From assembly GCA_047495785.1 (NCBI GenBank), contig JBLDXI010000025.1:2356001-2420000 (forward strand): DNA of 64,000 bases, given 5' to 3'. The position numbers and the translations under genes are program-made. Shown piece after piece: positions 44,094-63,499 of this stretch. The notes below the pieces were generated by a model, which was given only the letters and a program-made list of their open reading frames with translations, ran no database searches and was not told where the DNA came from. Each line of letters opens with the position of its first letter. The first letter of the stretch is position 1. The DNA comes from Lepidodermella squamata (Eukaryota > Animalia > Gastrotricha).

Positions 44094-44280
44094 AGTAGTA
44101 AGGATGGGAACTTTGGATCAGTAATAGCAGTACGGCGATTTTTACTATAGCCGTTTGGTATAAATATACGCAATTTGCGATCAGTAATGGCAGTACGGCG
44201 ATTTTTACTATACCCGTTTGGTATAAATATACGCAATTTGGGGATGAGTAATAGCAGTACGGCGATTTGTACTATAGCCG
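44094..44280 (+). repeat. Left terminal inverted repeat containing about 2.6 copies of a 63-bp unit
   Basis: The unit GATCAGTAAT(A/G)GCAGTACGGCGATTTTTACTATAGCCGTTTGGTATAAATATACGCAATTTG.. starts at 44116, 44179 and 44243. Confidence 0.92.
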
Positions 44281-44546
44281 CTTCTTGTCAATATACCTTC
44301 GTTTTAACCCACTGCTATGATTTCACCTAACTAAAATAAACAAATCTTCGTTTTTTCACCTGTTATGAGCTAAACTAATCATTTTTACACTGCTTCTTTA
44401 GTGCAGCTGCAATAGAGCCCTTTTTCATTCACACAAACACTTTTTATTAGTCTTAACGTTTCAAGCAATGAATTTATAGCTGGGATAAGTCTTATCAGTT
44501 TTTCTATTCATTTGTTCAGAGATTTGTAGCGGCTTGATTGGAGGGG

Positions 44547-45050
44547 TTAACGTCCAGATGAACCGAATCCGTTATCGCCACGGGTCGAATTTGCTGCTAG
44601 AGCGTTTTTCAATGGCCCCGTTACCGTTACTGCAGATTCTAAGCGACCATATTTTAAACACACCAACTGGGTAATACGGTCGCCTATTTTAATCTTGTAA
44701 GGTGTTTTGCTGTTGTTTGCAAGGCAGACTACGATTTTTCCGGTGTAGTCGGCGTCTTTAATTCATGAAAAATACAGATATTCATTAGTAATTTTCATTA
44801 TTATTTGCTTCTTACCTATTACTCCAGCGACCGTATCGATTCCATGGTTGATGCTCATTCCTGATCGACTGAATAGTTGTCCATAATATCCTCGTGGTAA
44901 ACAGATTTTAATATCAGTTTGAATCAGTCCCCTGGTTCCAGGTTGCAGTGTCGTCTCTTCTGCTGAATAGATGTCCCAACCCACAGAGCCTTTAGTATGC
45001 TTTGTCGGTTCTTTAGCTTTGTTACTTGTTAGCTCTACCTTCAGCTTCAT
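44547..45050 (-). CDS. dut: dUTPase (147 aa); exons 45050-44816, 44755-44547
   Basis: All five motifs are present after splicing a 60-bp GT-AG intron: VGWDI, RSG, GVI|DADYTG, GDRITQL, RGDNGFGSSG. Confidence 0.95.
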
Positions 45051-45484
45051 ATTTTATAATTTATATTGTTACTGAGGTTCGATTTTTATGTGAGCGGCTA
45101 CCTCCTTTCAGGCATATTGTTTTTGTAATTCAATCTTCCTTAAAAATGCATTAGGGCCTTTAGCTCTGTTGACCCCTCAGTGCTGGCTTTAATGCTTTTC
45201 ATCAAAGATTCTTGGTATTGTATACATCCTCCTTAATTGCTGTCGGTAATTCAATAAGAAAACATCATGTCAATAAATCTTATACATCCTCCCTAATTAA
45301 ACAATGCGATTTTTTACTTATCAAAATAAAAAGCAATTAGGATTTTTTACCCTTTACGGTGTAATTACCTTAAACAATTCAAACAAAACATCTCCCTGTT
45401 TTTTCCTTTTATGGAAATATCACTCAGACTATTTAAGAGAGATGCTTCAAGAATACACTTAGCATATTTCTTGAAGCAAGCTGG

Positions 45485-46249
45485 ATGCATCCTAAAGTCT
45501 ACCATTTCGGCATAGTCGGCAACATTGGGGCGTAAGTCTCATATACTCCACCGAATAGAATTCTATTTAAAGTCTCTTGTTTTAGCGGGAAATCAACCTT
45601 AATCGAGGGTCTCACTAATCTACCTTCACTCAACCGTAAACTTCAGGGATATACCGCGTGGCCAATTTGCGAGCCTGTTCATCGTTGGGAGTCCTTTACT
45701 GATGACGATAAAACTAACATTTTGAAAGATTACTATCAGATGAAAAATGCGTTCAACTTTCAAATTGTAGCCACGAGTGATATGTGCGGCCTTTATTCAG
45801 CCCCTAACCACAAACCTGAAATCTACGGGGCGCATACTATCGTTCTGCATGATCGAACGCCCTTCTGTTCTAAAAACGTCTTTATCCCATGTGCGTATGC
45901 ATCCAAGCGCATAAATTCTATCGAATATCACGCTCTCATGAATTTGTATGATAATTTCGAGCCGAATTTTGTAAAAACTGAAGCTATTATTTACTTGCGC
46001 TCCTCTCCCCAAATAGCTTGTCAAAGAGCCGTAGCTAGAGCTCGGGGTTCTGAAATGCTATTATCACTGGATTATTTACGCCTCGTACATGAGTTTCATG
46101 AAAAAATGTGTACTGTTGAGACTACAAACAAATCCCTACCATGTCCCGTGCTTGTTATCGACACTGATAATTTGAATGCCTCTGAGGTTCTAAAGCAAGC
46201 TTCTCAGTATGTTGCCTCTCTTATCACGCCTGTAATCTCTCAGACTTGA
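45485..46249 (+). CDS. Deoxynucleoside kinase (dNK/dCK/TK2 family, 236 aa); exons 45485-45531, 45586-46249
   Basis: P-loop GNIGA|GKST restored by the 54-bp intron; EPVHRW, DRT, IYLRSSP, lid RAVARARGSE, YLRLVHEFHE. Confidence 0.92.
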
Positions 46250-46259
46250 ATCCTCATTG

Positions 46260-46622
46260 ATGGATCCAACAAGACTTGTGCTCTCGAACAGCCAGATTTT
46301 AGACGCTGAATCTTTGCAATGTCCAATTTGTTTATCTATCCTACTTAATCCTATTCAAACGCGCCCCTGTGGCCATTTATTTTGTACTAAATGTGTTCTC
46401 GCTATTTTTCAAAATTCAGCTCGAACAGTATGTTGCTGTCCACTTTGCCGCGAATCATTAACAGGGAAAGATTTCGTTAAACCCCCTGTAATTTTATCGA
46501 ACATTATCTCGAATTTGATTTACAAATGCCAATATTCTGATAAAGGCTGTCCCATTACTCTAACTTATGACCTCATTTTTGGGCATGAAAAGTTATGCCA
46601 ATATAAAGAACCCATCCCTTAA
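46260..46622 (+). CDS. C3HC4 RING finger with TRAF/SIAH-type zinc finger (putative E3 ligase)
   Basis: CPIC...PCGHLFCTKC...CPLCR, followed by CQYSDKGC...HEKLCQY. Confidence 0.88.
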   Translation: MDPTRLVLSNSQILDAESLQCPICLSILLNPIQTRPCGHLFCTKCVLAIFQNSARTVCCCPLCRESLTGKDFVKPPVILSNIISNLIYKCQYSDKGCPITLTYDLIFGHEKLCQYKEPIP

Positions 46623-46664
46623 AGTTTTACATTCTTATTTCATTAGATTTAATTTTCAATAATC

Positions 46665-47186
46665 ATGGCTGAGGCGATAGTAGAATCTGCTAACCAGACA
46701 GTCAATCATCACATGTCTAGTAACTTGGTCATTCAACAGCATCCTCAGGATTCTAATCTCATCTACATAATGACTGATCGCAAAGATAAGAACGATAAGC
46801 CTAAAAAACTCGCCTTTAGACAAGACGAATTTCTTAGCCAGTTCGTTCCTTATTTTCGACCGCCGAATGATGCTTGGGTTGCTCAGGCTCAACTTGCCCT
46901 GCTATCTCACAACACAGGCTTTAAATTTTCGATGCATGAATGCAAAATTGAAGTCTGTGTCTTTGTGCCATCATTTTCACCGATTCTTATAGATATACGC
47001 AGGTTTTATCTGGATGCTAAAGGTATTTACTTCAAATTTACAGTAATAGCAATCTTTTTATGATTTAACTTTTTAGGAAATAAACAACCCTCAAGACAAG
47101 GAGTCTCTCTTGATGCAGCTCAGTTTCAAGACCTTGCAACTGGGGTGTTAACTGTTGCAGCGATGATTGAAACAGCCAATGAATAA
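46665..47186 (+). CDS. PC4/Sub1-like ssDNA-binding coactivator domain protein; exons 46665-47022, 47077-47186
   Basis: After a 54-bp intron the C-terminus reads ILIDIRRFYLDAK|GNKQPSRQGVSLDAAQFQDL, matching the PC4 signature (IDIR.YY...G...P...GISL...Q...L). Confidence 0.8.
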
Positions 47187-47303
47187 GCTAACACAAAACT
47201 TGACTAAAATGACTTACTGAATATTTATTTCAATCTATCCTTGTAATAAAGTTTTACCTCTTCCCAAATTCGATCAATTTTAAATTTTTAATCTTAGATT
47301 GTT

Positions 47304-50300
47304 ATGGATAACTATAGTTTACAATACTCATTTATTCGAAGTAATCGCCTGATTCATTCTACAAAATTCAAAATGTTTTCTGTGGAGTACTTCATTCAGC
47401 CCGTAACATCCGACTTTGCCTCAACCTACATCAACAGATATGGCCAATCTTCTAGTTCGCTTGGGCCGATGATTCAATTGTCTGGTGGCGCTGATGAACC
47501 TCGACTGGATAATATTCGATCATTTGTGCAGAACGTACCAGCCGACCAGGTGGCTAATATTGATTTGGAGACCCGCTTCAATATTCTGGCCAACTTCCTG
47601 TTCGATATTGTTGTAAATATCCATCGTGATTTACCTGTGAATTCCTTCTGCCGGCTAACACTGTACCACCCCGACTTGAAGATGCCTCTTAGCCTACCCT
47701 TCATGAAACGCGATCGGTTGCTGGAAATTTCAATTTTTGATCAACTGAGAAAAATATTACAGAGTAATGAAGAACTCTCATTTGCTGGTCGGTGGACAAT
47801 TCGTCTCTGTGTCATTGATAACCCCAATGCAGATCTAGGTCAAATTGTTGGTGGTTCTCGGGCAGAGCGGGCTATAAACGAAACTTTGGACAAATTTTTT
47901 CTTCGCTCCAAATCGATCGTTAGAATCGGAGCGCGCAAGAATGAAACGAACAATCTTTGCATGGGCAGAGCTCTCATCACTGGAGTGGCTTTGGCTCACA
48001 TGAAGGCGAATCCTACGGATCCATCTCTTCAAGCAACCTTCAAATCGATACGTAGTACGCGAACCAATCGTCAATTTCGCGAAGCCACGGCGCTATATCA
48101 GAAAGCGGGCTTACCTCTCAACCTTCCAGCCTACAATCTAGATGATCATTACTCAGCCCTGTGTTCGGCTATCGATCCTGAACATAATACTTACAGATTC
48201 GTAGTATACTCGTACGAATCACAGGATGTTATTAGGGAAATCCCAGAATTTGATCATCGCGTAAGCCTTGGGTTGCTTCCTGTTGTTCTACTGGTTTATC
48301 GCAACGACGTCTCTCAGCCCAACAGTCATCATTTTCATGTCATTGCGAATCTCAACTTTATGAAGGCCACTCTTAGCAATGCACAACGAATATGCCCCAC
48401 TTGCTTTCAGACGAAAACGAGTACGGCTGTGCACAGATGCAAGTTGGCATGCTCTTCCTGCCGTAATTTTTACATGAAAAACCTGAATTTCACTTCTTTT
48501 ATCATTAATATTATTTTAGGTGTATCAGGGAGCATTTGCCGTGTGATTTCCAACACAGACCAACAAAACTACACGCGGTGTCCGCAATGTCGTGCAGGTC
48601 TGATGTTTTTAACCTTTTCATTATTATTCAGCTCTTTTTATGTTTTTAGTTTTGTATAGCGAACGTTGTAAGCAAAACCACAAATGTGCTAAAAAGAATC
48701 CATGCTTTAAATGCGGGAGGAAATTTGTACATTTTCTCAAGCATGAGGCTATGTGTCCCGGGCGGCGCTGTCACATTTGTCAGGAGCCTTTGAAAGCCAG
48801 CGACGAAGAAAATGGCACACACTTCTGCTTCATGACTCCCTTGGTATACTCATTTTTTTCAGTCCAGCTTTTTTCAAAATACTGTGGTTGGTGTATTTTT
48901 AGCCCTTGAAACCGGCGAATAAACTGGAACGTTATCGTAACCTAGTTTTTTGGGACACTGAGACATTTTCGCCATCACTTGCTGATAACAACAATGAGTT
49001 CCAAGTATGCCTTATCGTTGCAAAGGTCGTATGCATACCTCACTGCATCGAAGCGAGGATTCAGCGATGCCATTCTAGTTGTGGACTTCATATTTTTTAT
49101 GGAAGTCGTCCTCTGGAGGATTTCGTAAACTGGGTGCTTCTACCTATGAATTACCAGTCGATTTATTTGGCTCACAACTCAGCCAATTTCGATTCCTTAT
49201 TATTACTGAAAGAAATTCAAACACGATGTTCTAAAGTGAAGATTCTTCAAAGGCAGGGATCTCTACTATGCATTGATTTCAAACAACAAAAAATCAGATT
49301 TTTGGATTCATATCTCTTTTTTCAATGCAGATTAAGGTAGGTTACCTAAGAAACACTAAGAAACTACATTGCTTACAGGTATTTGTTCAACAACAGGGAT
49401 TTACCAGCAACAATGGGAATCCCAGACAAGAAAACCTTCTTTCCTTACGTCTTATGCACTAAAGAAAAGTAAGTACATCATCAACTTCTTGAGCTATTGT
49501 GATTGAATTCGCTGTAATCCTTCGAGTTTCAATCTCGAATTCCCACAGCTGCCTAATATGATCTACTATGAGCCTGACAAAATGTCTCCTTCTGAAAGAG
49601 CAGAATTTCTAACTTTCTACAACGAAAACAAACTGAAACGGTTCAGTGTTCGCCACACGTTACTGCAATACTGCATACAGGATTGTCTAGTTTTGGAAAA
49701 GGCGTCAATCAAATTTCGGGCGCTAATGCTGGAGTTGTGTTCTACTGATGCCTTTAAAGAATGCATCACACTAGCTTCTCTCACAAGCACATGCTTCCGC
49801 AAGCTGTTTCTTACGAAGGATACATTACCTGTCATCCCGACCGCTGGCTACTGTGGCAAGGATTCACACAGCAGGCTCTCGATAGCTTTTCTTCAATTTC
49901 TGATGGAGTCTGACCCTGAAACTTATGGTTCAATGAAACACGCTCAGAACTCACGTCAAGAAGTTCGAATATCTATACCTGGCCACCGTTATCCTTATCG
50001 CGTCGACGGTTTTGTTGCACGTCGTGATAAAATTCCGAGTGAACCCGATCTGATTGTCGAGGTTCATGGTTGTGCTGTCCATGGCTGCTTGCAATGCTTT
50101 GAGGCCTCACAACTAAATTTTCTATCTGGACAACCAAACGGCGTAGTTTACAAGCAAACCTTGGAACGTGAAGAGTTGTTTCGCTCGAATGGTTACATTC
50201 TTCAAAGCTTTTGGGAGCATGAAATTAGAGCTAGTTTCAAACAACACCCGAGAGCACAGGAGATTTATGATAATCTCACAATAGCTAATGTAATGGAGAG

Positions 50301-52159
50301 CCGTTCGTTTTTCTTTGGAGGTAACTGGAGGTTTTCCCTATTTAATCTTCGCGGGATTAAAACATCATGCCTACTTTTTAGGGCGGGTCGAAGCTTTTCG
50401 TTTAATGGCTATGATTGCCGAATCACACTCAACTTCAGGCGACCAAAATTTGGAAAAGATTGCTCAAATTTGTAAGGAAAGCGGGATGCAAACCAAGGAC
50501 TTCTTATTTCCATCGCCCGATTATTCTATAATTTCCGCCGACTTCAACTCGTTATATCCAAGCTGTATGATGGATGGCTACTATGCAATAGGACCACCTA
50601 AAGTATCCACCTTGGATCTCAGATTAAACAACGAGAAACTGCAGGAGATTTATTCAAAGGAATCTTTTTTTGGTGTCGTACAAGCACGCGTAAGCTCTTC
50701 GCATCTACATATCGTCTCCCTGCTTTCATCATCACCACATTATTTTGCTAGGTATTAGCGCCGAAAAACATCTGGCTACCTGTACTCTGCTTTCGTAGTA
50801 AACAAAACAAGCTCGTGTTCTCATGTTGCTATGCTTGTTCGTCGACTGCAAATCCAAACTTGTGCGTTTCAAGCCGTGAATGCACCCATTCTGATTATGA
50901 AAGGTCCTGGATTGGTTCGTATTGCTCTGTGGAACTGAAGTACGCTACAGATGTTCATGGCTACAGATTGCTGGAAGTCTACGAGGTTAATAATTTTGTT
51001 TAGCCAACTCATGCATGGCTTCTATCAAGTTATTTTTTTTAGATATGGGAGTTCAAGAAGAGCAATACAATTTTCAGAGATTTCATTAAAAGATTCACCA
51101 TTTTGAAGGCCGAATCCTCCGGCTGGCCGCCAAACTGTGCTACTAGTGAACAAAAAGCACAGTATTTGGAGCAATGGGAACGCATTGGTATAACGATTGA
51201 TAGCACCAAGTTGGATAAAAAGAACCCTGGGTTACGCGCGATCGCCAAATTAGTTTTGAACAGCTTTTTTGGTCGATTTGCTATGAATTCTAATCTAGAG
51301 AGAACAGATTATATCAAATCCCCGTTTCTGCTTCAGCAAATGCTAAATAATCCAGCTTTGGAAATTGTGGATATTCAACCACTAGGCTTACTCATCAACT
51401 CTGATGATGTCTCTCGCTTGCGAATTGTAACACGGCCAACCAAAGATGCCGACGTTCCAAATGGATCCACCTCAGTTATAACAGCGGCCTTCGTAACAGC
51501 TAATGCTCGTGTGAAACTGGCTCGTGAGCTGTACCGAGTCGGCCCAAAAAGTGCTATCTACAGCGGTTAGAGAATAGCGCCGCTTATGCTACCAACATCT
51601 CTACGTTTTTTGTCTTTTGTTTTAGACACGGATTCAATTTTTTGCCTTCAAGGGCCTGGAATTACTAAAATTGAGTTCACACCCGTTCTTGGCGGCTTGG
51701 CGGATCAGCTTGATACAGGGCAACGCATCATTGCAATGGTTGTACTGGGCTGTAAGGCATATGCCCTACTTTTTGCTGACGGCAAAGCCAAGCTAATGTT
51801 AAAGGTAATTGCTACTTGTTGTTACGCCCTCTGTTTTTTATTATTTACGTCACGCGCAGGGAATACGTCAAAGTTTTCATTCACGCAGTCTTCTCGATTT
51901 TTTCTTGTTCATCAAGCATGTAATACAAAGTCTCCACGATAACGAAACCAGCGGAAGCGGGGGCCGGGGTGATAACAACAAAAACAGCGTCATCGCTGAA
52001 TTGGATCAGACTCAGTTTAAAAAAGTGCATACTCCGTTATCGGAAATTCATTGTGTTCATATAACAAAAAAGATTCGTTTAACCTATGATAAACGTTGGC
52101 TACGCCCCGGCGATGCTTCCTTTCTAACTTATCCACATGGATATAGCGCTGATCAATGA
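47304..52159 (+). CDS. polB: Protein-primed family B DNA polymerase (about 1424 aa, 11 exons) with N-terminal extension, Zn-binding motifs and a Vsr-like insertion
   Basis: ExoI WDTET, ExoII HNSANFD, FLDSY, ExoIII YCIQD, FFG|GRVEAF, DFNSLYPS, KLVLNSFFGRF, YS|DTDS, KAY. Introns 48463-48519, 48598-48649, 48844-48902, 49337-49396, 49469-49526, 50321-50381, 50690-50751, 50986-51042, 51566-51625 and 51805-51859 give a 4275-nt open frame. Confidence 0.93.
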
Positions 52160-52166
52160 TCGATTA

Positions 52167-53321
52167 TTACATGAATAAACTCCAAAACCCTGTGCCAGCT
52201 TGAAACTTGTTGATTTTATTTATCTTACGCTGTGACGTTCTTCGGAAAAGTTTTCCAGGTGGTGATATTTGTGTTTGATCAGTCATAGAACGTGGCTTTC
52301 TACCGCGCTTTTGACCCTTCCGTGGCGTTGCCGCTGCAGTTGCTGCTCCAGCTAGCTCAATTTCCATCGGTTCAGCGGCAGCGGCTTCTTCTTGTCTTTC
52401 TGCTTGATTATCATCATTATCAGCACCATCTTGCAGCTCTTCACTATTGCTGCCGCTGCTGTCCTCATCGCCGCTAAACGAAGACGACCCTGCTGTTGTG
52501 TTGCTGTCTCGAGGGGCCTGGGGGGTGCGCGCGCGGGGGGTCCCTCCTCTCGTAGGCAGCTGCTCATCATTAGGCCGATCAACAACAACATCATCGTGGC
52601 TGAGGACGGTCGTGGCTGCAGCGCTAGAAGTCGATGATGTTTGCGGGGCAGCGAATAGAAAATCCATTTGAAGATCATCAAATTCATAATTGCTGCTATT
52701 ATCAGTTGAAGGTCGTGGCGTTGTATTAGGTGAAAACTGCTGCTGAAAGCCGCCAATACCCGAATCTCTGTTATAGTTGTTATAGCTAGGCCCGGCCGCT
52801 TGACCAAAATTACTAGATGTTAATTTAGTAGGTTGTTGGCGCGCAAGTTGTTGTTGCTGCTGTTTTTTTGGAGGAGGAGGAGGAGGAGGAGAAGAAGCAG
52901 AAGGAAGCGGCGGCGGCGGCAGCGGAGGAGGAGGAGGAGGAGGAGGAGGAGGAGGAGGAGGAGGAGAGCGCGGCCTCGATTCTGCTCGATCTGCTGGTGC
53001 AGGCGACATTGGAATAGCGGCTGGCGGCTGGCTACTGCCTTGTAAAACTACCAGCTTCTTCAAATTCATAATCTCATGCATGAGTTCGTTACGTTTTCGC
53101 ACTAAATCGGCTGAATTATCACTACTACTAGCGTTGTTTATCACATCCCGGTCTAAAGACTGTAATAGCTGCACTAGTTTGAAAAGCAGAGGATTGCTCA
53201 GCAATGTTTTAGCAGCAATCAAGTCGCTCGCGTTTGGTTGTTGTTGTTGTTGTTGTGCTGGAGTTGGCCCAGGTGTCGCAAGTGGAACAATAGTCATGCG
53301 CTGTGCATAGTTTCGCTGCAT
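52167..53321 (-). CDS. Pro/Gln-rich low-complexity Maverick protein (384 aa), function unknown
   Basis: Long ORF within the structural gene block: N-terminal RMTIVP plus a helical segment, poly-Pro, an acidic stretch, a basic tail, and terminal GTGFWSLFM. Confidence 0.7.
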   Translation of the reverse strand: MQRNYAQRMTIVPLATPGPTPAQQQQQQPNASDLIAAKTLLSNPLLFKLVQLLQSLDRDVINNASSSDNSADLVRKRNELMHEIMNLKKLVVLQGSSQPPAAIPMSPAPADRAESRPRSPPPPPPPPPPPPPPLPPPPLPSASSPPPPPPPKKQQQQQLARQQPTKLTSSNFGQAAGPSYNNYNRDSGIGGFQQQFSPNTTPRPSTDNSSNYEFDDLQMDFLFAAPQTSSTSSAAATTVLSHDDVVVDRPNDEQLPTRGGTPRARTPQAPRDSNTTAGSSSFSGDEDSSGSNSEELQDGADNDDNQAERQEEAAAAEPMEIELAGAATAAATPRKGQKRGRKPRSMTDQTQISPPGKLFRRTSQRKINKINKFQAGTGFWSLFM

Positions 53322-53324
53322 AGT

Positions 53325-53738
53325 TTAGATTCGAAGAAGCCTCTTGAGTTCTGAATAATCAAACTTTAGCCTGGGTGCAAAGGATTTCAATACAGTGGGT
53401 AAAACTGCAAAAAAGGAAGCTTTCGAAGCCTTATTTCGCCTATTGTTCTTGTTGCTATTAAGGCAGTGTCGAATAAAAACTTGCCGGTTGTGCTCGACCA
53501 AATTGACACCTTTTTGTTTCAATTTAGCCAAATCAGGGGCCAGAACAGTACTAGTGCTGCGAAGCCAATACAAGGCGCAACGGCTAAGAAATCGTATAAG
53601 GCTAACAGAGCTAGTTGCTAAAATATCAGCACGCTGACCGGGGTGAGCATGCAATAACCATTTCAATGCAAGAAAAAGCCGCCGTTTTTTATCAAGACTG
53701 AACGATGGTGACGTTGCTGAGGTAATAACTTTATTCAT
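53325..53738 (-). CDS. Small basic Maverick protein (137 aa), possible core protein
   Basis: ATG-initiated ORF packed between the ATPase and the Pro-rich gene. QRADIL...LIRFLSRCAL, a basic cluster and an amphipathic FFAVLPTVLKSF segment. Confidence 0.65.
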   Translation of the reverse strand: MNKVITSATSPSFSLDKKRRLFLALKWLLHAHPGQRADILATSSVSLIRFLSRCALYWLRSTSTVLAPDLAKLKQKGVNLVEHNRQVFIRHCLNSNKNNRRNKASKASFFAVLPTVLKSFAPRLKFDYSELKRLLRI

Positions 53739-53789: not shown

Positions 53790-54633
53790 TCATTTCTTTG
53801 AGACTAAAATGTAAGCGTAACCAGGTTTACTACCGAAGCCATTGCTCGAACGAATGCGGAGATTATCCGGAGTAGTTGCACAATTATCCAGTAGCAGTGG
53901 CGTGTGAGATGATTCAGCAGTTGCTTGGTTCAACGCTTCAAGAAGGCCTCGCCAGCCCATTGGGGAACGCCGTTGTGCATATGATCTAAAGCTTGCAGAG
54001 TCGGAAATGCAGCGAAAATAGAATAAATAGTTTGCATTTTGCTATAGAATAGAAAATACATAGAAGAAAAAACAATAATTTTCTGAGGCAAACCAGAATT
54101 TCCCTGCTATTTTTTGCTCGAGTAAACAAAACTTGTTGAAGGAGAATGGTTGTCGTATTCAAGTGCCGCCCTCCTAAAAAAAGCTGTACCAGTGTTTCGT
54201 CTTCAGTTAATAGGCGATACACGTCATCAAATACTAGGCAACAGCGGGGCTGCGTCTCGTTATTGTCGTTGATATAATTTTTTAAGCTGAAGCTATCGCT
54301 ACTGCTGTTTTTTGTGTCTGCTAAATTTACGAATTCAACTTTAATTTTGTGAACTTGCAATGCAGCATCGGCTATGTCATTGTAAATGGGTTGGAAAGTA
54401 GAATAAAAATAGACAATTCTCTCAAAAGGAAGTTCAAAACTGAATGCATCCTGTAGGATTTGAAGCACCAGACTTGTTTTACCGCTCCCCGACCTGAAGA
54501 TGAGTAAATTACACTAAAATATATTGACTTTTATTTCCATCGTCACTTACGGCCCAACAATGAGAATTGTGCTAGGGTGAACAAAAGGCAAAGCTTCATT
54601 TATGTTGCCAGGGCAGCAGCGCAAATCACTCAT
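53790..54633 (-). CDS. A32-like (FtsK/HerA) DNA-packaging ATPase (244 aa); exons 54633-54551, 54493-54094, 54041-53790
   Basis: Walker A GP|SGSGKT restored by a 57-bp intron; Walker B LVFDD; GRH...LLQQ; REIL|QNANY restored by a 52-bp intron. Confidence 0.92.
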
Positions 54634-54636: not shown

Positions 54637-55200
54637 TTATAATCTAACGTTACAGGGTTTTATTCTTTCAAGTGGTCTCATAGATAGACCATAGTGGGAA
54701 TATAATGTATTAAATTTATGATAAAGTACACAGTCTTTTATAAGCAAATTGTTCTTTGATCCAAGCTGATCAAAATGCCTCAAAATTTGGTGCATGTCTT
54801 TACCTCGCGCTCGAAGCATGCTGTAATATAGAGCCCATAAGCCGCAGATTTGTGAAAAAACATGCTGGTAAGACCTATTGCAATGAATGTACGGCACTTC
54901 TGTTTGGCTATTCGCTTTCAAAAAGTTGTCGATATAGAGGTTATGATAGGAAGGGGAAAGGTTAAGGCTATCGAAAAACTCACAGGGCTCATCAGGATGC
55001 TGTGCGCTGTGAACAAACAGTGTGACCCAGTGCTTTCCTGTAGAATTGTATACATTTCCTGTGTTACAGATAATCAATTGTGGATTATTTTTCACAATAG
55101 GAAGCTGCTGTGGTAGCTGATCAGCGGCTACAACAAAAATGTCAAACTTTTTTAGTACTGGATCAATCCGGATGAAATCTTCCAATTCATTGTTGTACAT
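54637..55200 (-). CDS. Adenain-type (C5) cysteine maturation protease
   Basis: ICNT...GKHWV...EFFDS...YQ....QICGLW, giving His, Asp, Gln and Cys. First ATG at 55200. Confidence 0.92.
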   Translation of the reverse strand: MYNNELEDFIRIDPVLKKFDIFVVAADQLPQQLPIVKNNPQLIICNTGNVYNSTGKHWVTLFVHSAQHPDEPCEFFDSLNLSPSYHNLYIDNFLKANSQTEVPYIHCNRSYQHVFSQICGLWALYYSMLRARGKDMHQILRHFDQLGSKNNLLIKDCVLYHKFNTLYSHYGLSMRPLERIKPCNVRL

Positions 55201-55210
55201 GAAAAACTGC

Positions 55211-56701
55211 TTAAGAATCAACAATTACGTCACGCGTTCGTGTGATCTTAAAAAATTTGAATTTTAAGGCAATTTTAATTTTATGAAAAAAGATGATACC
55301 TCAAAAACTGAATCAGTTTCAGTTAATACTAACAGCTGAGTAACAATTGTTGTTTGAACAGCAAAACTCAACTCTACTCTGCAGGTACCTGTGCGTATAA
55401 CTGAGTAATTTTGCAACGAGGAGTTGCGCGATAAATCGAAACCAAAAATTGTGAAGCCATTAATAAACTGATCCATAGTTAACGTAGATGCCTTGAAAGG
55501 GTTATCTGGGTTGATAGCATTGAGAAGCTCCAAATAGACTCTGGTGACATCTCCATTTGCAAAATCCATTTCCAAGGGAGCTGTTGAGTGATGTAGTTCA
55601 TTGCCCAAATAAATCGATATTCGGGATAGCTGGCTGTGTAATGCATTCAATGGATTTTTACCCGCCGTTCCATTCAGGGCGGAATCTTCAAAAAAACAGA
55701 AAAACATACGCCTTGGAAGCTTACCATTAATACATTGTGGTATCTGTTAAACCATTAGAGTTTTAAAAATTGACTTAGAAACGCGCGATGAGCAAACTTA
55801 CACTGTAACTCAAAACACTACTTGGTATGTGAAAAAGCCTTGTTCGAACTCTCATTATAGGATATTTGGCGTTAGTTTTTTCCAGCGCACGCGTATGAGC
55901 AATCACTATGTCCGGCGACACAACAACAGCCCGGGCAATAATTTTTGCAGATTCAATGACGATTGAGTGAGGATCAGCTGTGCTCGGCCCAACCAAAGCA
56001 AAATTGTTAGATGCCCTATAGAGCTTGATGCGGACTTCAACATTAGGTAGAAGTAGCCTATTACACAGCATAGGATCTGCAAACAGGCGTCCCAGGGTGC
56101 ACACAGATTTCCCGCCCTGAACAATTTCCAACCGTTTTTTAAATCCCTCGTTTGAATTGTCAAAATTATCCAGTTTTTTAGCTGTATCAGGATACCAAAA
56201 TTGTGTCTGTAATATCGTGTTTTTTGCATCAGTATTATGAGACAAAAGCGTTGAAATATAGGCCCGATAAGCGTATAATGAATTTTGTTCACTTAAAAGT
56301 TGCCCATTTAGTGAAATCTCGCATGTTTTGAACATTGTGTGGTGGGCTAAACAAAGCGGGGCTTTTTGTAAATTTGTAGCCGAAAGACTAGCCTTATACT
56401 CGTTGTATGCATCGTCAGCTTCGCCAGCATTTTTCTTCCGAGCTTCAGAAGGGGTTCTAACTACTTTCCACTTGAGCATCAGTTGCATGCGTGACAGACA
56501 CAAATAATCATTGTACGGGCCGATTTGAAACTCAATCAGGTTCGGTGAACTATTAAGAGGGGCAATTGGGTAAACATCTATACTTATTTGGTTTTCTTCA
56601 GCAAGCTGTGAAGGCGGTACAGTAAATAAATCTAAATCTGAAGATAATACTATTGAAGAGGCTGAGGCTGGGTGAACAAAATTATCTCCAAAGCCTTCCA
56701 T
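55211..56701 (-). CDS. Double jelly-roll major capsid protein (459 aa); exons 56701-55802, 55743-55300, 55246-55211
   Basis: SDLDLFTVPPSQ, IEFQI, YAYRAYISTLL, RLLLPNVEVRIKL, AKYPIMR, GKLPRRMFF, KNPLN, GFTIFGFDLS, FE|ITRTRDV. Two GT-AG introns (58 and 53 bp). Confidence 0.92.
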
Positions 56702-56734: not shown

Positions 56735-57277
56735 TCAAGACGCTTCAAATAGCACTGATTTAGTTGTTGCGCGTCTTTTCCTTTTATAAGCCTTTCTTTT
56801 TGTAGTAGAAGCACGGCGCCTACGTTTTGCAGTCACACTACTAGTTTTACTAGGGCCACGACGACGGCGCCTTTTACGGCCACCTCCACCGCCTTGATGT
56901 TGCTTCAAAGCCGTTTCAGCAATATCCTTAGCCATGTTTAAGGCGCCTGAAGTGCCATGACGCTTAAGGGATTCGGTAAAACTAGGTCTAGCGCCCTCAG
57001 GTTGTTGCATATCACCTAATATTTTTTGGCCAGTAGATAATGCTTGTTGAAAAATAGACGGAGCAATTACTGGGAAGAAATTTCTGAAAAAGGCACCTAA
57101 TATATTTCCTATTCCCTGACCCCTATAATGATATGGAAATTGAATTGTTGCCCCACGGAAATGGTCCAGGTTAGCACCCGCTCCAGCTCCATAGCCTGCT
57201 ATCAGCGGGGAGGAGTGTTGGCGGAGAAAAAACTGCTGGTACTTGTCAACGTTTTGGTTAGAATAAGCTAGGGGCAT
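56735..57277 (-). CDS. Maverick core or membrane-active protein (GxG cleavage motif, amphipathic helix, Arg-rich tail)
   Basis: FRG...YRGQGIGNILGAFFRNFFPV and QGGGGGRKRRRRR. Located between penton and MCP. Confidence 0.8.
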   Translation of the reverse strand: MPLAYSNQNVDKYQQFFLRQHSSPLIAGYGAGAGANLDHFRGATIQFPYHYRGQGIGNILGAFFRNFFPVIAPSIFQQALSTGQKILGDMQQPEGARPSFTESLKRHGTSGALNMAKDIAETALKQHQGGGGGRKRRRRRGPSKTSSVTAKRRRRASTTKRKAYKRKRRATTKSVLFEAS

Positions 57278-57315: not shown

Positions 57316-58536
57316 TTAATATAAGGCTCCGGTTTTTCGGCGAATATGAAGTAGCAATACAACTTTGCTACCATCCACAAAATCGATCAATGCCCCGTTA
57401 TCGCGGCGGATTTGAACTTGAATTGAATCTATAAAATTGGCTTTTAAAGGTAAATATAGGCCCGAGTTATAAATCACTGTAAAATGTGATGACAAGTCTG
57501 AATTTGCCGTAGCAGAAGCCATCGTAGAATAGGTTATCATTCGAAGGAGGCTAGCTTGGCAATCTCCAACAAAAACATCCGCTGCAACTGAGCAGTAAAT
57601 GAACAGTGAGTTATTGCCATAATTCAACTGAATGTTGTATTGAGCTGTAGCACTTTCTTCATAGCATGCATAAATAAAGGCAGGCGGTAAATCATTATCT
57701 TTGGTGATTACTGTTTGCTCAGAAAAATCAAAGTGCTGTGCTGAATTTACGCCTTCTTGATTTTCTACCGCCGCTGTCTCATTATTTGCATCCTCCTTAA
57801 GTTTTGGTCTGCTAGAAAGCCTAACAATCCCAACTGAGTTGAATAAAATGTGTGGATTTTCACGAATTTGGTGGCTCATATTCCACGCATATGCCAAGGC
57901 ATACGTTGACTTTATATCAAAAGTGGAAACTTCATTAAATTCTGGCTCGTCATTTTTTGGGGCCTTGGGAAAAATGAAAACTCCAGACGGTGTATTCTGT
58001 TCTATTGGAGACACAAAACCTAAGAGGCCAGCAGAATCTGAAGGTATAAACATAGAATATGGCCATTTACAGGTAATTTTAGTTTTTTTGTTGACTGAAT
58101 CATAATGAGCAAAAATAGAGCCATTACTACTTGAGATGGATATTTTTTCATTAAAGTGATCGATTAGTTTGGTTATATTCGCAAAATATTCACCTCCGAA
58201 ATTTACTTTGTTAATAAAGCCAGTTTCCCATGGATTGTTGAAACTTTTCATCCGATGTGGCAAAGAGCCAGGATTTGTTAAATAATTAGCAATAATGTCG
58301 TTTTTAAAAGATTTCAGCCAGTTACAATCAAGCACATAGACTGTATGACGATCAATGCTACTCCACCTAACAGGAATTGTAGCCTCAAGTAGGGCTACTT
58401 CATAAGCACGGCAATCGGGTACGCAAATTGGGACAGGGAGAGCAACTTGATAATCCGACGGAGTATTCGCCGGATGTTGAGAATATGAGGCATTCGAGGG
58501 TAAATAAATAAAGAAGTCCTCCTGGATGCTAAGCAT
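57316..58536 (-). CDS. Minor capsid (penton) protein, 406 aa
   Basis: N-terminal FFIYLPSNAS...NTPSDYQVALP...YEVALLE; C-terminal LFIYCSV...VGD...LLR...YLPL...I.VQIR...G..IDF...LHIRR. Confidence 0.88.
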   Translation of the reverse strand: MLSIQEDFFIYLPSNASYSQHPANTPSDYQVALPVPICVPDCRAYEVALLEATIPVRWSSIDRHTVYVLDCNWLKSFKNDIIANYLTNPGSLPHRMKSFNNPWETGFINKVNFGGEYFANITKLIDHFNEKISISSSNGSIFAHYDSVNKKTKITCKWPYSMFIPSDSAGLLGFVSPIEQNTPSGVFIFPKAPKNDEPEFNEVSTFDIKSTYALAYAWNMSHQIRENPHILFNSVGIVRLSSRPKLKEDANNETAAVENQEGVNSAQHFDFSEQTVITKDNDLPPAFIYACYEESATAQYNIQLNYGNNSLFIYCSVAADVFVGDCQASLLRMITYSTMASATANSDLSSHFTVIYNSGLYLPLKANFIDSIQVQIRRDNGALIDFVDGSKVVLLLHIRRKTGALY

Positions 58537-58732
58537 TTGTTATGTTATCCTTATCTATCTTTTCTAAAGTAAGGATTGCGCTGTTGCCAAAAGGGGGGAG
58601 CTTAGTTTTGAATAAATAGTTTGAAATTTCTATAAGCCAAACGGTTATTAGAAGGAAAAAAATGTAGGCCCCTACACGCACAGATGGCTTTTGTAGGAAA
58701 GCTAAGAGTGGAGTCGTAGGAACTCTATTCAT
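58529..58732 (-). CDS. Small predicted single-pass membrane protein (67 aa)
   Basis: Start overlaps the integrase stop (ATGA) and the end overlaps the penton start. Hydrophobic segment VGAYIFFLLITVWLI. Confidence 0.55.
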   Translation of the reverse strand: MNRVPTTPLLAFLQKPSVRVGAYIFFLLITVWLIEISNYLFKTKLPPFGNSAILTLEKIDKDNITNA

Positions 58733-59940
58733 GAGGCCAAGGTTTTGATCTCGTTTGCATCAATCCAACTAGCGGCTTCAATCGGCCAGTTTTGCCATTT
58801 CACAAGAGCCTGTTTCTTGCCATTTATAGTGCGATGCTTCAGAACTTTTTCTATTAAATATGTTTCTTGCGGATGTGCTATCTGAAGCTGCCAATCGTAA
58901 AAACTACCTTGAATACGCTTATTCAGAGTATCACGGAGATAATACTTGTCGGGGATGGTACAAGTATCTATGCGGTCGATAAAAAAATATTCTTCAGTAA
59001 AAATGAAATCTCCTTCTTTGTGAAATAAATCCTTTACACGACTAATTCTAACACAATCACCGACAGAAAAAGTCGGTTTGTATAGTAAATTCTTGCGCTT
59101 TTCAAGCATCAATTGATCTCTTTTTCCAAAAACATTATTGTAAGCAACCAAATTTATAGGATCTTCTGGGGAAGCTAGCCATAATTCTAACGGGGCAACC
59201 CTAGTGCTGCGATTTTTCATTTGATTGTAAGACGCTAAGAAAAAAGGTAAGTAATCGATGTAACGCAGCGTATGATTTGCAATTTGATGCCTCGAAATAG
59301 TTCTACGAAGCCAACGGTTGAAAATTTCTATGGGTGAACACTTGAACATGGAGGTTGTAGTGTAATAATAAACATTGAATTTTTTAAATATTTTTTTAGC
59401 TTCTTTGTTGATAAATTCTCCGCCAGAATCTGTAGTGAAAGAGCGGCAACGCAAATCAGGTGTTAGGCTGCTCAAAAAATTACTGATCTTCTCAGCAGTG
59501 TAATTTCCTTCTTTGTTAAGTAAGGGAATACAGAAAGCATAACGCGTAAAACAGTCTTTGATTGTAAGTAAATAGCGGGTTCCATCATTATCTTGGCTTG
59601 AATCTTGAACTTCAAGAAGATCACCTAGAAAGAGGTCACTTCTAGCATAAACTTCATATTGCATGAATTGCTTCCGGTTTCTTACACTTAGTGGTTTATA
59701 TAATGAATATGTTCGATCATGGCTCATAATCTCAGCTAGTTTTTTATGAGTAAGGGAATTTCTCAGCTCTAAGGGTAATGTAGCTTTAAGTGTTGAGTAT
59801 AATCTGCGCAGGCCTTGAAATGATCCAACATGTTTCGGATCATTATAGAAGCTCAAAACAAACGATTTCAAGTCTGACCTGTGGTTTATTTTAGCATCTC
59901 CTTCAGCTAGACGTCTCGCATTGTGTTTATTACGTGGCAT
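58729..59940 (-). CDS. Retroviral-like (RVE) DDE integrase with C-terminal chromodomain
   Basis: GDLL, TDSGGEF and IEIFNRWLR form the triad; FSVGDCVRIS...F.K, GSFYDWQLQ; chromodomain YLIEKVLKHR...LVKWQNW...SWI. Confidence 0.95.
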   Translation of the reverse strand: MPRNKHNARRLAEGDAKINHRSDLKSFVLSFYNDPKHVGSFQGLRRLYSTLKATLPLELRNSLTHKKLAEIMSHDRTYSLYKPLSVRNRKQFMQYEVYARSDLFLGDLLEVQDSSQDNDGTRYLLTIKDCFTRYAFCIPLLNKEGNYTAEKISNFLSSLTPDLRCRSFTTDSGGEFINKEAKKIFKKFNVYYYTTTSMFKCSPIEIFNRWLRRTISRHQIANHTLRYIDYLPFFLASYNQMKNRSTRVAPLELWLASPEDPINLVAYNNVFGKRDQLMLEKRKNLLYKPTFSVGDCVRISRVKDLFHKEGDFIFTEEYFFIDRIDTCTIPDKYYLRDTLNKRIQGSFYDWQLQIAHPQETYLIEKVLKHRTINGKKQALVKWQNWPIEAASWIDANEIKTLAS

Positions 59941-59943: not shown

Positions 59944-60213
59944 CTAATTCTTCTTTATAGCTAATTTACGGCAAGTAGGGACAACCGAACAATTAGCCAT
60001 GTGGCTAAATAAATCACCGTTTAAGTGGAATAATAAATCATTTATATTATATAACATCCGCTCAGTAGACTCGACAAGTTGCCGCAGGTGAAGGAGTTCG
60101 GCTTGAGTATTGCGAACTTCCATAACAGCGAAAAAGCTGATTAAAATGGTAACCAGGGATAGCAGCAATAGGATCGGTAAAACAGCACGCGGAATATCTG
60201 TTGTTTGATGCAT
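59944..60213 (-). CDS. Small membrane-anchored coiled-coil protein (89 aa)
   Basis: N-terminal hydrophobic helix (VLPILLLLSLVTILISFFAVM), a heptad-like segment and a C-terminal Cys pair. Stop lies 3 nt before the integrase ATG. Confidence 0.6.
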   Translation of the reverse strand: MHQTTDIPRAVLPILLLLSLVTILISFFAVMEVRNTQAELLHLRQLVESTERMLYNINDLLFHLNGDLFSHMANCSVVPTCRKLAIKKN

Positions 60214-60377: not shown

Positions 60378-60977
60378 TTATTGTTGTTTGATATACAGAA
60401 AAAAAGGCGCCAATTTAACAAATGCTATTTTTATAAGAGATAACGAAAAACAGCCGCTCATAATCATTTTTCCAGTGTGAAACAGTGTGGCAGATACATT
60501 TAACTTTGGTTCATTTTCATTAGTGCTGACTTTGGAGAAAACACGTATACGCAACCCAGGAAAAAATTCTGGTTGGTAAACGCATATTTTAGGAAATTGA
60601 AAAGCTAGCAGGCTAAGATTGACAGTTTTATGTAAATCGTAGAACAATACTATATTAGTAATTATTGGGTCACGGATTATCAACCGTCGATTAACAATTT
60701 TTCTGAGTGTAGCTTGAAGAACTCCAAAAGCAGTAACACAATTCGAGGCTGTTTTGGTACCACTACAAATTATAGCTCCGGATGAAAATAATAAAAACGT
60801 CGCGTTAAAAGCAGGTACTTTATAGAACAAAGCACTCGACATTTTTTTTGGGTTATATTTTGCACAAGGTAAAATTAGGGCTAGACTATCTAAATTAAAT
60901 AGAAAATTTGACCTTGATTTAGCCATAATATTTGAAATAGAGTAATCAATATCATATTGTATATTATTTACTTCCAT
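60378..60977 (-). CDS. TATA-box-binding-protein homologue (core 199 aa from ATG 60977; frame open to 61157, true start uncertain)
   Basis: Two TBP repeats: ISNIMA...NLDSLA...KYNPKKM...FLLFSSGAIICSGTKT and ITNIV...VNLSLLA...YQPEFFPGL...TLFHTGKMIMSG. Confidence 0.9.
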   Translation of the reverse strand: MEVNNIQYDIDYSISNIMAKSRSNFLFNLDSLALILPCAKYNPKKMSSALFYKVPAFNATFLLFSSGAIICSGTKTASNCVTAFGVLQATLRKIVNRRLIIRDPIITNIVLFYDLHKTVNLSLLAFQFPKICVYQPEFFPGLRIRVFSKVSTNENEPKLNVSATLFHTGKMIMSGCFSLSLIKIAFVKLAPFFLYIKQQ

Positions 60978-61060: not shown

Positions 61061-61489
61061 TTATGATCGTGGTCGACTGTGATGCGGCTGATTGAAGGCT
61101 TGTAACATACTTGATTTCAGCTGTTTCTGTTTGAACTTTGCGATAGGTTGAGGGCAAATCATGACCAAAAAAGAGGCGACAGAATCTTGCTTTCGTGACT
61201 CATGATTGGTAATTGGAACAGCTGGTTTATTTTTCGCCTTGCATGGCGTTTTCGCCGATTTAGCAACTGATTTCTTCTCAGTACCTATGACTTTTTTCTG
61301 AATTTTATGTTTAGCATTGCGTTTCGGTTGATTACGAACCGCAGTTTTTGCTAATCTAGAGGCTGATGTTTGTTCAACAGGTTCCTTGGTAAACGTACTC
61401 GTATTCGGTTCATTCAGGTTTATTGGTACGAAATCATTGTTAGAAAAAAACAATGGAGAAGCCGGAGATGAATTGAAGAAAGCTTCCAT
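61061..61489 (-). CDS. Basic low-complexity ORF; either a separate gene or the 5' exon of the TBP homologue
   Basis: ATG at 61489 (MEAFFNSSP...), Lys-rich, overlapping the TBP frame. A weak candidate phase-0 intron 61165-61110 (56 bp) would fuse the two. Confidence 0.45.
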   Translation of the reverse strand: MEAFFNSSPASPLFFSNNDFVPINLNEPNTSTFTKEPVEQTSASRLAKTAVRNQPKRNAKHKIQKKVIGTEKKSVAKSAKTPCKAKNKPAVPITNHESRKQDSVASFLVMICPQPIAKFKQKQLKSSMLQAFNQPHHSRPRS

Positions 61490-61657
61490 AAATTCAGTAA
61501 GAAGAATAATATTCAAAGTTCTTGCGTTTGAAATGAAAAATGATCGAATGACGGAAGCCGGCCGCGGTGATTGGTTGGAGTTGCTGAGCCCCAGAACCTT
61601 CTGATTAGGAATGAATAAATAACAAAGGCATTATATAAATAAAATAAACTGACCAAA

Positions 61658-62464
61658 TTAGGTCGAAGAGCTGTTGTTGAAAGGTAAGACGGTAGCGACA
61701 GGTTGTAGTGCGATGGAGCGTTGCATGATGCCCGGCCATTTACTATTCGCACCTTCCTGCTGACCATTAAGAACATCGATGACTGATGCCCATGGAATTT
61801 TCTGAGCGTGTTGATAGGGTGGAGGTACGACGTTCTGCATTTCTACTGAGACCCTACGACCTGCCCGAAGTAAAAGGTAGAATATGTGCCGCAGGTTTAC
61901 GCTGACACCATTAAAGTTTTTTAACAAATCGTAAAATAAATGTTGGATGTAGATATATCGGCCTTCGGTGTAGGTAGGGTGTGCCGTTAGGCCATACCAG
62001 AAACTTTCTTCCAGGCCAGACACAATAATAGGGTTAGGGCTATCGTCGAGGCAATCATCCAAAAGGTAATCACTTTCAGTAAAAATAATTGAGTGACAAA
62101 TGGACGACCATAAATCATCCTGGCGAACAAGGAGCGTGGTAGTATCATTTAGGATGCTCTTCCATAAATCATGCCCAACGATGGAAGCACAGGTAGCTAA
62201 ATTATATTCGGCAAAATGTTGAAAATTCGTGCCATCGTGGGTTGATGGGAAGAGACGAGCAACGGCTCTTTTGTAGCCGAGATAAACATGATCGATAGTA
62301 ATATGTTGGCCTTTCGAGTTGGCAATCAAATCGAATATGGCGACTTCAGCGAATGTAATGCGTCCAGAGAGGGTATTTAGTGATATATTTAATGATTTCG
62401 GAGGAAAAAGTAAATCTTCTCGGTAGAAAATCGCTTCATAAGATTCATCATAGCCAATAATCAT
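61658..62464 (-). CDS. Hypothetical protein (268 aa)
   Basis: Long ATG-initiated ORF of globular composition inside the TIRs. No motif recognised. Confidence 0.65.
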   Translation of the reverse strand: MIIGYDESYEAIFYREDLLFPPKSLNISLNTLSGRITFAEVAIFDLIANSKGQHITIDHVYLGYKRAVARLFPSTHDGTNFQHFAEYNLATCASIVGHDLWKSILNDTTTLLVRQDDLWSSICHSIIFTESDYLLDDCLDDSPNPIIVSGLEESFWYGLTAHPTYTEGRYIYIQHLFYDLLKNFNGVSVNLRHIFYLLLRAGRRVSVEMQNVVPPPYQHAQKIPWASVIDVLNGQQEGANSKWPGIMQRSIALQPVATVLPFNNSSST

Positions 62465-62544
62465 AGCAACTTATTTGACCTTGCTATCCCTACCTTAATC
62501 TTTGCTTTTATTCGATTTTCCTTGAGTAAAAAAATGTTTCTTAT

Positions 62545-62790
62545 ATTTTTTAGATTACAGTTAAGTTGGATTGATAGGAGAAAGTAAAGTTTATTTACAA
62601 AACAAGTTAATGGACATATCAGGAAAGAAAGGAGTATTTATAAATGCTAATGGCCAAAGTAAAAAATATTTATTATATTTTAGATTAAAGTTAAGGGGGA
62701 TTGATAGGAGAAAGTAATGTTTATTTACAAAAAAGGTTAATGGAAAGTAAGGTGTATTTATATAAGCTAATGGACAAAGCAGGAAAAAAG
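62545..62790. repeat. 130-bp imperfect tandem duplication in a divergent intergenic region
   Basis: GGATTGATAGGAGAAAGTAA.GTTTATTTACAAAA...GTTAATGGA...GTATTTATA...GCTAATGG.CAAAG occurs twice (TTGATAGGAG at 62571 and 62701). Confidence 0.8.
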
Positions 62791-62857
62791 ATGAGCTAGC
62801 TTGAGTTCTTAGATTACTGTATCTAATCAAGTATCTTTTTGGAAACTAAGAAAATTG

Positions 62858-63133
62858 ATGGAAGCAGAAGACATGTAAGTTTGGTTCTTTTTTAAAAAAT
62901 CTTGAATAAATTCTGTTATGTTTAGTCGTGAACGCTTATATCAAGCACTGCTAAGCATTGACCATCTGCAACGAGCAATGACAGCAGCTATAAACGAAAT
63001 GTTGAACACACAATTGGAGGTTGAACAATTGATCAATGATGCATCACGATTTATGATAGCAACTCGAGCAAGAGATCAGGCATGCAGCCTAGATTGTGGT
63101 GATTGGAATTGTAATTACTGTTACAAAGATTGA
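62858..63133 (+). CDS. Small helical protein with Cys-rich tail (74 aa); exons 62858-62874, 62926-63133
   Basis: ATG GAA GCA GAA GAC AT|GTAAGT...TTTAG|T CGT gives MEAEDIRERLYQ...CSLDCGDWNCNYCYKD. AATAAA follows the stop. Confidence 0.65.
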
Positions 63134-63314
63134 AAAATTAAAAATAAATTATCATGTGTGCATTTTTTATATTACAAATTAATTCCCAGAAAGAATGCAA
63201 AAGCATGACTCATAATAGTTTTAGAAAAAAAGTATGCCCGCTGTATATTTTATCATAAACATTGCGTACATTTATGGGGCAATGGATAAAACGCACTTAT
63301 ATATTTATGTGAAA

Positions 63315-63499
63315 CGGTTATAGTAAAAATGACCGTAGTGCTATTACTGATACAACGCTCGTATATTTATGCCAAATGGCTATAGTAAAAATCGCCGTAC
63401 TGCCATTACTGATCCCAAATTGCGTATATTTATACCAAACGGCTATAGTAAAAATCGCCGTACTGCCATTACTGATCCAAAGTTCCCATCCTTACTACT
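63315..63499 (-). repeat. Right terminal inverted repeat with about 3 copies of the 63-bp unit
   Basis: Reverse complement of 44094-44280, near-perfect distally and diverging inward. Confidence 0.92.

Follow-up and report, generated by a model that had tools for sequence, protein, structure and literature searches.

Which kind of mobile element occupies positions 44094 to 63499 of a stretch of 64,000 nucleotides from the gastrotrich Lepidodermella squamata (the window; contig JBLDXI010000025.1 of assembly GCA_047495785.1, positions 2,356,001 to 2,420,000 of the forward strand), and how far do its additional genes make it independent of its host? The initial annotation described an apparently intact endogenous Maverick virus with accessory genes resembling those of large DNA viruses, and proposed a more autonomous, possibly active lineage and a candidate for an undescribed system. 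We recovered the element, 19,406 bp long, at exactly the boundaries given there. With confidence about evenly balanced for and against, we read it as a coding-intact spiralian Maverick that lives in the nucleus and is spliced by its host, in which the genes at both ends would act early, a deoxynucleoside kinase (dNK) and a dUTPase would supply nucleotides, a PC4-like protein would serve replication or coactivation, and a TBP-like protein would choose promoters.

The termini are those of a Maverick or Polinton, i.e. terminal inverted repeats (TIRs) with simple-repeat ends on an element of 13-25 kb. The TIRs (44094-44233 and 63360-63499) are 140 nt long and 96% complementary, with the tips AGTAGT on the left and ACTACT on the right. 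They are built on 63-bp subterminal tandem repeats, the left array continuing to 44298 and the right one starting at 63298. AGTAGT//ACTACT is the commonest end motif of vertebrate Mavericks, which like this element have (AGT)2//(ACT)2 ends and accessory regions at both ends, and element size and TIR length fall within the vertebrate ranges (PMC8097293). The GC content of the element is 39.7%, compared to 42-43% in the host part of the window, and its CpG observed/expected ratio of 0.93 shows no depletion.

The gene content supports the same family. For vertebrate Mavericks nine conserved genes were described (pPolB, ATPase, PM, PZ, INT, mCP, PW, MCP, PRO; Barreat and Katzourakis 2021, PMC8097293), and each has an established or putative counterpart here. 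The protein-primed DNA polymerase B (pPolB; 47304..52159, plus strand, 1424 amino acids (aa), 11 exons) contains exonuclease and polymerase motifs, and four of its exon open reading frames (ORFs) match PF03175, as expected for a Maverick polymerase. The integrase (58729..59940, minus strand, 403 aa) is of the retroviral DDE type with a C-terminal chromodomain (rve 1.7e-5, Chromo 6e-7). It is 27-33% identical to other integrases and finds matches in 33 of 81 related loci, which were fetched by similarity to the major capsid protein (MCP) using an 11-sequence MCP alignment; a 56-sequence alignment was too diverse for this search. The MCP itself (55211..56701, minus strand, 459 aa, three exons) is predicted to be a double jelly-roll protein, the model of exon 1 (pLDDT 87.5) matching the capsid folds of iridovirus, D13 and PBCV-1. 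The minor capsid protein or penton (57316..58536, minus strand, 406 aa) is longer than in relatives, with tblastn matches in 50 of the 81 loci, and PW (56735..57277, minus strand, 180 aa), likely a core protein by its basic C-terminus, was recognised by a profile of 46 related ORFs (E 5e-17). The adenain-like cysteine protease (54637..55200, minus strand, 187 aa) was found by a profile of 23 related ORFs (E 3e-20) and weakly by Peptidase_C48; its His, Asp, Gln and Cys are present by eye. Together with the A32-type packaging ATPase (53790..54633, minus strand, 244 aa, three exons, Pox_A32 3e-7) the minor capsid protein and the protease complete the set that characterises a Maverick. A PM-like conserved ORF (53325..53738, minus strand, 137 aa; profile of 20 related ORFs, E 3e-6) lies between the ATPase and a PZ-like, Pro-rich ORF of low complexity (52167..53321, minus strand, 384 aa), which no profile of related ORFs matched and which is assigned by position only.

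Catalytic motifs are kept in pPolB, integrase and ATPase as well as in dNK and dUTPase. The order INT-mCP-PW-MCP-PRO is the same as in the related loci, followed by ATPase-PM-PZ on the strand of the capsid genes, with pPolB facing them; in vertebrate Mavericks ATPase-PM-PZ are instead located with pPolB (PMC8097293). PolB, integrase, hexon, penton, adenain and ATPase are also shared with adintoviruses and MELD viruses (Starrett et al. 2021, PMC8502044). Among the ORFs of the element Pfam returned no match to PLA2X or GasderminX/Cupiennin, the hallmark genes of Alpha and Beta adintovirus.

Within the family the lineage is, to judge from its capsid protein, isolated and without a supported close relative. 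At E<=0.001 we obtained 3,725 MCP homologues, the best of them 29-41% identical among 1.84 billion representatives. The MCP phylogeny that had been suggested as a check (57 rows) gave a long isolated branch and no supported sister. IMG/VR held no close relatives of MCP exon 1, integrase, TBP-like protein or dNK, and the phage records none of the integrase. The pPolB aligns far better to loci L045, L046 and L035 than to L001, and with these three it has in common an HGCxxHGC insert that resembles the VSR domain of mollusc-type pPolB2; a PDB search with the alignment returned nothing for this label. Polintons with a VSR-type pPolB2, in which a VSR endonuclease domain is inserted in the polymerase, are known from molluscs and a marine nematode, and the main text on them reports no dUTPase (Jeong et al., 10.1101/2023.08.22.554363).

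Are these genes intact? An exon-by-exon check gave 19 genes with 16,011 coding nt, equal to 82.5% of the element. With the introns removed the 5,308 codons contain no internal stop, and each gene begins with ATG, ends with a stop and has a length divisible by three. This requires 17 predicted introns, all GT-AG and 52-62 nt long (mean 57), of which ten are in pPolB, two each in ATPase and MCP, and one each in dUTPase, dNK and the PC4-like gene, so that 14 belong to core genes. Introns of the cargo genes (54-60 nt) are of the same kind as those of the core, and the host part of the window offers one candidate of matching size (59 nt). As read from the sequence, 16 of the 17 would break the frame or introduce a stop if retained, which would make splicing obligatory; the exception is the first pPolB intron, which leaves the frame open.

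We infer the splicing from sequence and homology. Both large MCP exons have matches in 61 related loci; in 59 of these a single open frame runs across the junction of MCP intron 1, and 60 have no extra residues there. On the intronless relatives L045 and L046, pPolB exons 8 and 9 abut (at residues 1144/1145 and 918/919, respectively), and exons 4-6 also map there one after the other; for exons 2, 3 and 11 no convincing match was found in the relatives. In the PDB matches the two halves of the PC4-like protein abut at human PC4 residue 33, just where the predicted intron separates them. Some splice sites are weak: four donors, and the acceptor at 49526, whose G at -3 is unusual. An introner origin was considered and rejected, as the best pairwise score among the introns was reached by 77 of 100 shuffles; being mutually unrelated, they are not introner copies. 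Introner-laden elements are known from dinoflagellates (PMC12166617). Several introns lie inside conserved motifs (dUTPase motif 3, the P-loops of dNK and ATPase, polymerase motif C; 44756-55801), the first ATPase intron interrupting Walker A. At the ten pPolB junctions identity to four relatives was 0.32 versus a background of 0.23 (p about 0.04), a weak trend, and the MCP intron junctions are not conserved.

Neutral drift of 0.5% would leave 5,308 codons without a stop with P=0.03, and drift of 1% with P=0.0008. Cargo and core are thus equally undecayed. The description as a coding-intact Maverick with both termini therefore stands, given the 17 introns, and the coding sequence, cargo included, appears from its frames to be either recent or selected. 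The five mismatches between the TIRs are all situated inside the 63-bp repeat array, the first 32 TIR bases being identical. Taken as an insertion age, a divergence of 1.8% per side predicts about 12.7 stops where none is seen (P 3e-6), and we discarded this use of the TIRs. A target-site duplication (TSD), expected with 5-8 bp at a Maverick insertion, is absent, the outer six bases being TAAATC (44088-44093) on the left and CAAGAG (63500-63505) on the right; the initial annotation makes no mention of this. A TSD marks the insertion event and not the gene set, and the family call is unaffected; its absence counts against a clean fresh insertion. The proposal of a possibly active element is compatible with the lack of decay and loses weight by the missing TSD. 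The definition of an intact vertebrate Maverick, i.e. intronless core ORFs with TIR and TSD, does not describe this locus: intact vertebrate elements are intronless with 6-bp TSDs, whereas 14 core introns and no TSD are found here (PMC8097293).

Sister-copy recombination, repeat turnover or an assembly join are the more likely sources of the TIR differences and the missing TSD. An alternative is that the whole locus is a chimera, either a recombinant of two sister copies or an assembly join within a multi-copy family, or else a lone copy that has gone dormant and is no longer mobile. Besides the missing TSD and TIR mismatches that do not date the insertion, the flanks would agree with it, the left one lying among dispersed host repeats and the right one having no match within the window. 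We nevertheless hold it to be very improbable, because over 19.4 kb there is no frame break and no duplicated gene, and because the TIR mismatches are confined to the array behind 32 identical bases. A chimera of near-identical copies would leave the gene set unchanged and would bear mainly on whether the insertion is fresh. Neither blastn nor tblastn found a second copy in the first 44,093 bases of the window.

The cargo reported by the initial annotation (TBP-like, PC4-like, dUTPase, dNK, RING and orphans) is present; Pfam supports its named members, the PC4-like protein only below the cut-off and with additional PDB matches. From these profile matches the identities of TBP-like protein, dNK, dUTPase and RING protein appear solid, and that of the PC4-like protein weaker and consistent. 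The dUTPase (44547..45050, minus strand, 147 aa, two exons, intron 44815-44756 inside motif 3) matches PF00692 with both exons (9e-15, 8e-10), and its five motifs are recognisable by eye. The dNK (45485..46249, plus strand, 236 aa, two exons, intron 45532-45585 inside the P-loop; PF01712 1e-21) has an insect multisubstrate dNK as best PDB match (2.4e-13). It keeps the P-loop, EPxxxW, FQ and the LID arginines, among which we assume the catalytic Glu and the LID arginine roles known for such kinases. The two genes, which belong to one pathway, are adjacent and divergently oriented. They are followed by a 120-aa protein with a C3HC4 RING (Pfam 4e-7) and a Sina/TRAF-type zinc finger (46260..46622, plus strand), likely an E3 ligase by its domains, and by the PC4-like protein (46665..47186, plus strand, 155 aa, two exons, intron 47023-47076), whose C-terminal part would be a domain for single-stranded DNA binding or coactivation; all three of its PDB matches are PC4.

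At the opposite end of the element the TBP-like gene (60378..60977, minus strand) lies on the virion strand two ORFs upstream of the integrase. Its product of 199 aa consists of the TBP core only and belongs to the TBP family by PF00352 (3.4e-24; 84.9 bits in two stretches). Very divergent, it has one database homologue among 192 candidates, at 30% identity, and its nearest Atlas clusters are eukaryote-rich (commonest Nematoda), archaeal and nucleocytovirus-rich. The lone 30% homologue, the introns of equal size and the element-like composition of the cargo fit a long residence and not a recent capture. In the PDB alignments with eukaryotic TBP three of four Phe and both Asn are kept; we take all of these to be DNA-contact positions, and the Phe to be those that kink the DNA. 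Splicing of the upstream 142-aa orphan onto the TBP-like ORF was rejected, since the sequence contains no frame-keeping intron of the usual size.

The canonical motif TATAAA occurs at -110..-10 of five of the ten virion-side genes, against a background of 11% in randomly placed windows (p=0.003 without correction for the six patterns tried). In five control windows the count was 0-2 of 10, and on the antisense strand of the upstream region it was zero. An unbiased k-mer scan revealed no stronger motif, and non-canonical boxes are not enriched upstream of the virion-side genes (TAAGA 1/10, ATAAAC 0/10). The pattern fits TATA-driven late promoters and does not identify which TBP reads them.

The TBP-like protein could also work in the opposite direction, as a decoy or host shut-off factor that binds TATA DNA or host cofactors, recruits TFIIB poorly and damps host transcription, for instance of stress or antiviral genes, while host TBP drives the virion genes. 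At the positions given in PMC7221094, one of the two Glu that contact TFIIB is replaced by Gln, and among the ORFs of the element Pfam names no TFIIB. The virion-side boxes are canonical, and a private TBP would not be needed for them. On the other hand the second Glu, both Asn and three of four Phe are kept, the gene shares the strand of the virion cassette and closely precedes it, and a decoy would damp the element's own TATA promoters too. We therefore rate it as rather unlikely and retain promoter choice as the preferred function. A model for this function exists in herpesviruses, where the TBP mimic ORF24 of KSHV reportedly directs host RNA polymerase II (Pol II) to late promoters. Unlike ORF24 and the TBPs of large viruses, the protein described here is a 199-aa core-only TBP of a 19-kb integrating element that has canonical TATAAA boxes and in which Pfam recognised neither TFIIB nor RNA polymerase. 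The TBP-like proteins of large double-stranded DNA viruses have the TBP fold with the DNA-contact residues kept, as here, and are proposed regulators of viral genes; almost all TBP-bearing viruses also encode TFIIB (PMC7221094).

How unusual is this cargo for a Maverick? The claim that it is atypical holds in part. For TBP and dNK we found no description in an animal Maverick in the literature searched, Repbase and subscription papers lying outside its scope, so that a precedent may exist. Several other types have published precedents, so that the cargo is unusual in part only. Vertebrate Mavericks regularly bear accessory regions on either side of the core (PMC8097293), and coral polintoviruses carry VLTF3 and gain and lose genes in a patchy manner (PMC11131425). 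The text of Supp. Fig. S2 of PMC8502044 has the labels dUTPase, SSDBP and IAP on animal adintovirus maps, their assignment to rows being unsure. The legend of Fig. 5, in the section on non-animal datasets, lists TBP on a MELD-virus map; the supplement text contains no kinase label, whereas the present element has a dNK. Nematode Mavericks, as described by Widen et al. (10.1101/2022.07.12.499685), share intron-bearing cargo near the TIR and differ by an intronless core and a cargo of host-derived proteases, kinases and a gB-like fusogen, none of which was found here.

The proposed survey of cargo in related elements was productive for one gene. PC4 (PF02229) occurs in seven of the 81 related loci, four of them above the cut-off (L051, L060, L053, L065, L066, L046, L052; Pfam was run on 85 of 239 non-core ORFs, namely the representatives of clusters and further members, most of these from the PC4-like cluster). 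A whole-word literature search for PC4 together with Polinton or Maverick gave no relevant paper. PC4-like ORFs are a recurrent feature of animal-type Maverick loci; some of the ORFs have two PC4 units, and clustering adds L001:11376-11885. For TBP, dNK, dUTPase, RING and the orphans, tblastn with the cargo exons was negative in all 81 loci, of which only six reach 12 kb, so that the element ends were rarely covered. A scan with pPolB added seven loci, two of them phi29-like phages and three with pPolB fragments among ankyrin genes, and sixty ORFs from five of the seven included no TBP, dNK or dUTPase. The three fragments (L083-L085, around 9200-10300) lie among ankyrin-repeat genes of IMG/VR contigs of 338-733 kb. 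Other cargo in related Mavericks comprises PP1c-binding (GADD34/ICP34.5-type), NIDO, BIR and HARP domains (L016:6222-6752, L035:6611-7321, L045:5257-5895, L049:415-1014).

These observations also bear on a simpler explanation, an ordinary Maverick with shuffled accessory cargo, where functional helpers were gained piecemeal and neither a transcription programme nor a change of life style is involved. The normality of accessory regions, the patchy turnover in corals, the published dUTPase, SSDBP and IAP labels, and PC4-like genes in seven of the related loci with a BIR in one would all be in line with it. It does less well with TBP and dNK, for which the searched literature offers no animal-Maverick example, with the TATAAA enrichment before virion-side genes, and with the divergent pairing of dNK and dUTPase. 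We consider it unlikely.

According to the preferred reading, a nuclear Maverick with its own nucleotide supply and promoter choice, transcription and splicing of the element's genes are likely carried out by the host nucleus. By analogy to known Mavericks, the integrase would insert the linear genome, pPolB would copy it by protein priming from the AGTAGT ends, and MCP, penton, PW, ATPase and protease would build the particle. The genes near both element ends may act early; two 84-bp direct repeats (62531..62744) between divergent ORFs of 268 aa and 71 aa are a candidate bidirectional early promoter. Increased dTTP and the exclusion of uracil by dNK and dUTPase could permit replication in cells outside S phase, and the PC4-like protein could coat displaced single strands, serve as coactivator, or both. 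The TBP-like protein would then bind the TATAAA boxes of the virion cassette and bring in host Pol II, leading to a switch from early to late, and the RING protein may ubiquitylate a host restriction factor.

A number of points weigh against this reading. The missing TSD and the five TIR mismatches have been mentioned. The TBP-like protein has no recognised TFIIB partner encoded by the element. The TATAAA enrichment is based on ten genes only, the box also precedes two of the nine other genes, its spacing to the ATG varies from 19 to 109 nt, and, being canonical, the boxes could be read by host TBP alone. Translated across its intron with X, the PC4-like protein matches PF02229 at 7.6e-4 with 19.4 bits, short of the cut-off of 25, and it escaped a profile built from the PC4-like ORFs of related loci. 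TBP, dNK and dUTPase were found in none of the 81 loci, which give no sign of a conserved cargo.

The greater autonomy initially proposed cannot be upheld in the sense of giant viruses, as Pfam names neither an RNA polymerase nor a capping enzyme nor TFIIB among the ORFs of the element (a divergent TFIIB in the 268-aa orphan is possible) and the introns require the host spliceosome. Since they tie the element to the host nucleus, any extra autonomy would be herpesvirus-like, i.e. in nucleotide supply and promoter choice. Nor is the system undescribed; it is a variant of the known Maverick system. More tentatively, and with clearly less confidence than in the preferred reading, we suggest a deep, intron-rich lineage of animal polintoviruses that converged on a herpesvirus strategy within 19 kb: its own TBP and PC4 would turn Pol II to the virion cassette late, kinase and dUTPase would allow replication in non-dividing cells, and particles would still be made in a spiralian host.

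Five small or orphan ORFs are without assignment. An ORF of 67 aa with a hydrophobic segment (58529..58732, minus strand) overlaps the integrase stop and the penton start, and an orphan of 89 aa (59944..60213, minus strand) is predicted to be a single-pass membrane protein. Flanking the integrase, both could be membrane or entry proteins. A small ORF after the integrase is present in related loci too, but its profile matched neither of them. The 142-aa orphan (61061..61489, minus strand) is basic and probably disordered. For the 268-aa orphan (61658..62464, minus strand) the predicted fold is unusable (pLDDT 34), and Pfam, PHROG, PDB and Atlas gave no assignment. The 71-aa orphan (62918..63133, plus strand) has a Cys-rich end with an LxCxD motif next to a CxxC; this recalls the Rb-binding Oncoid ORFs reported from adintoviruses (PMC8502044) and may serve as a lead only. 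Weak Pfam matches to colicin immunity, VipE and Gam were treated as chance.

The surrounding sequence belongs to the host. An intronless hillarin gene (22629-26615) is 57-58% identical to those of molluscs, a brachiopod and annelids, and a tree of 28 rows chosen from 120 listed matches, one of them a flatworm, places the host among spiralians on a long branch. A cluster of long-exon genes (116-15400 and 32012-33769) contains Kunitz, PAN and trypsin-like domains. Left of the element (37219-43709) a dispersed repeat has copies near 37219, 39039, 42045 and 43173 that are 75-80% identical, one of which carries a zf-C4 fragment of the nuclear-receptor type (41956-42417).

The core-gene introns run counter to the published description of Maverick core genes as intronless, given for vertebrate Mavericks (PMC8097293) and for the C. 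plicata Maverick. Fourteen core introns would hide such elements from ORF-based screens, and the number of intact elements may be underestimated wherever a survey demands intronless ORFs. The nucleotide-salvage pair would be of use only to an element replicating outside the S phase of its host. For the timing of gene expression in Mavericks and the formation of particles, this pair and the TBP-like protein with the candidate boxes before the virion genes offer testable parts.

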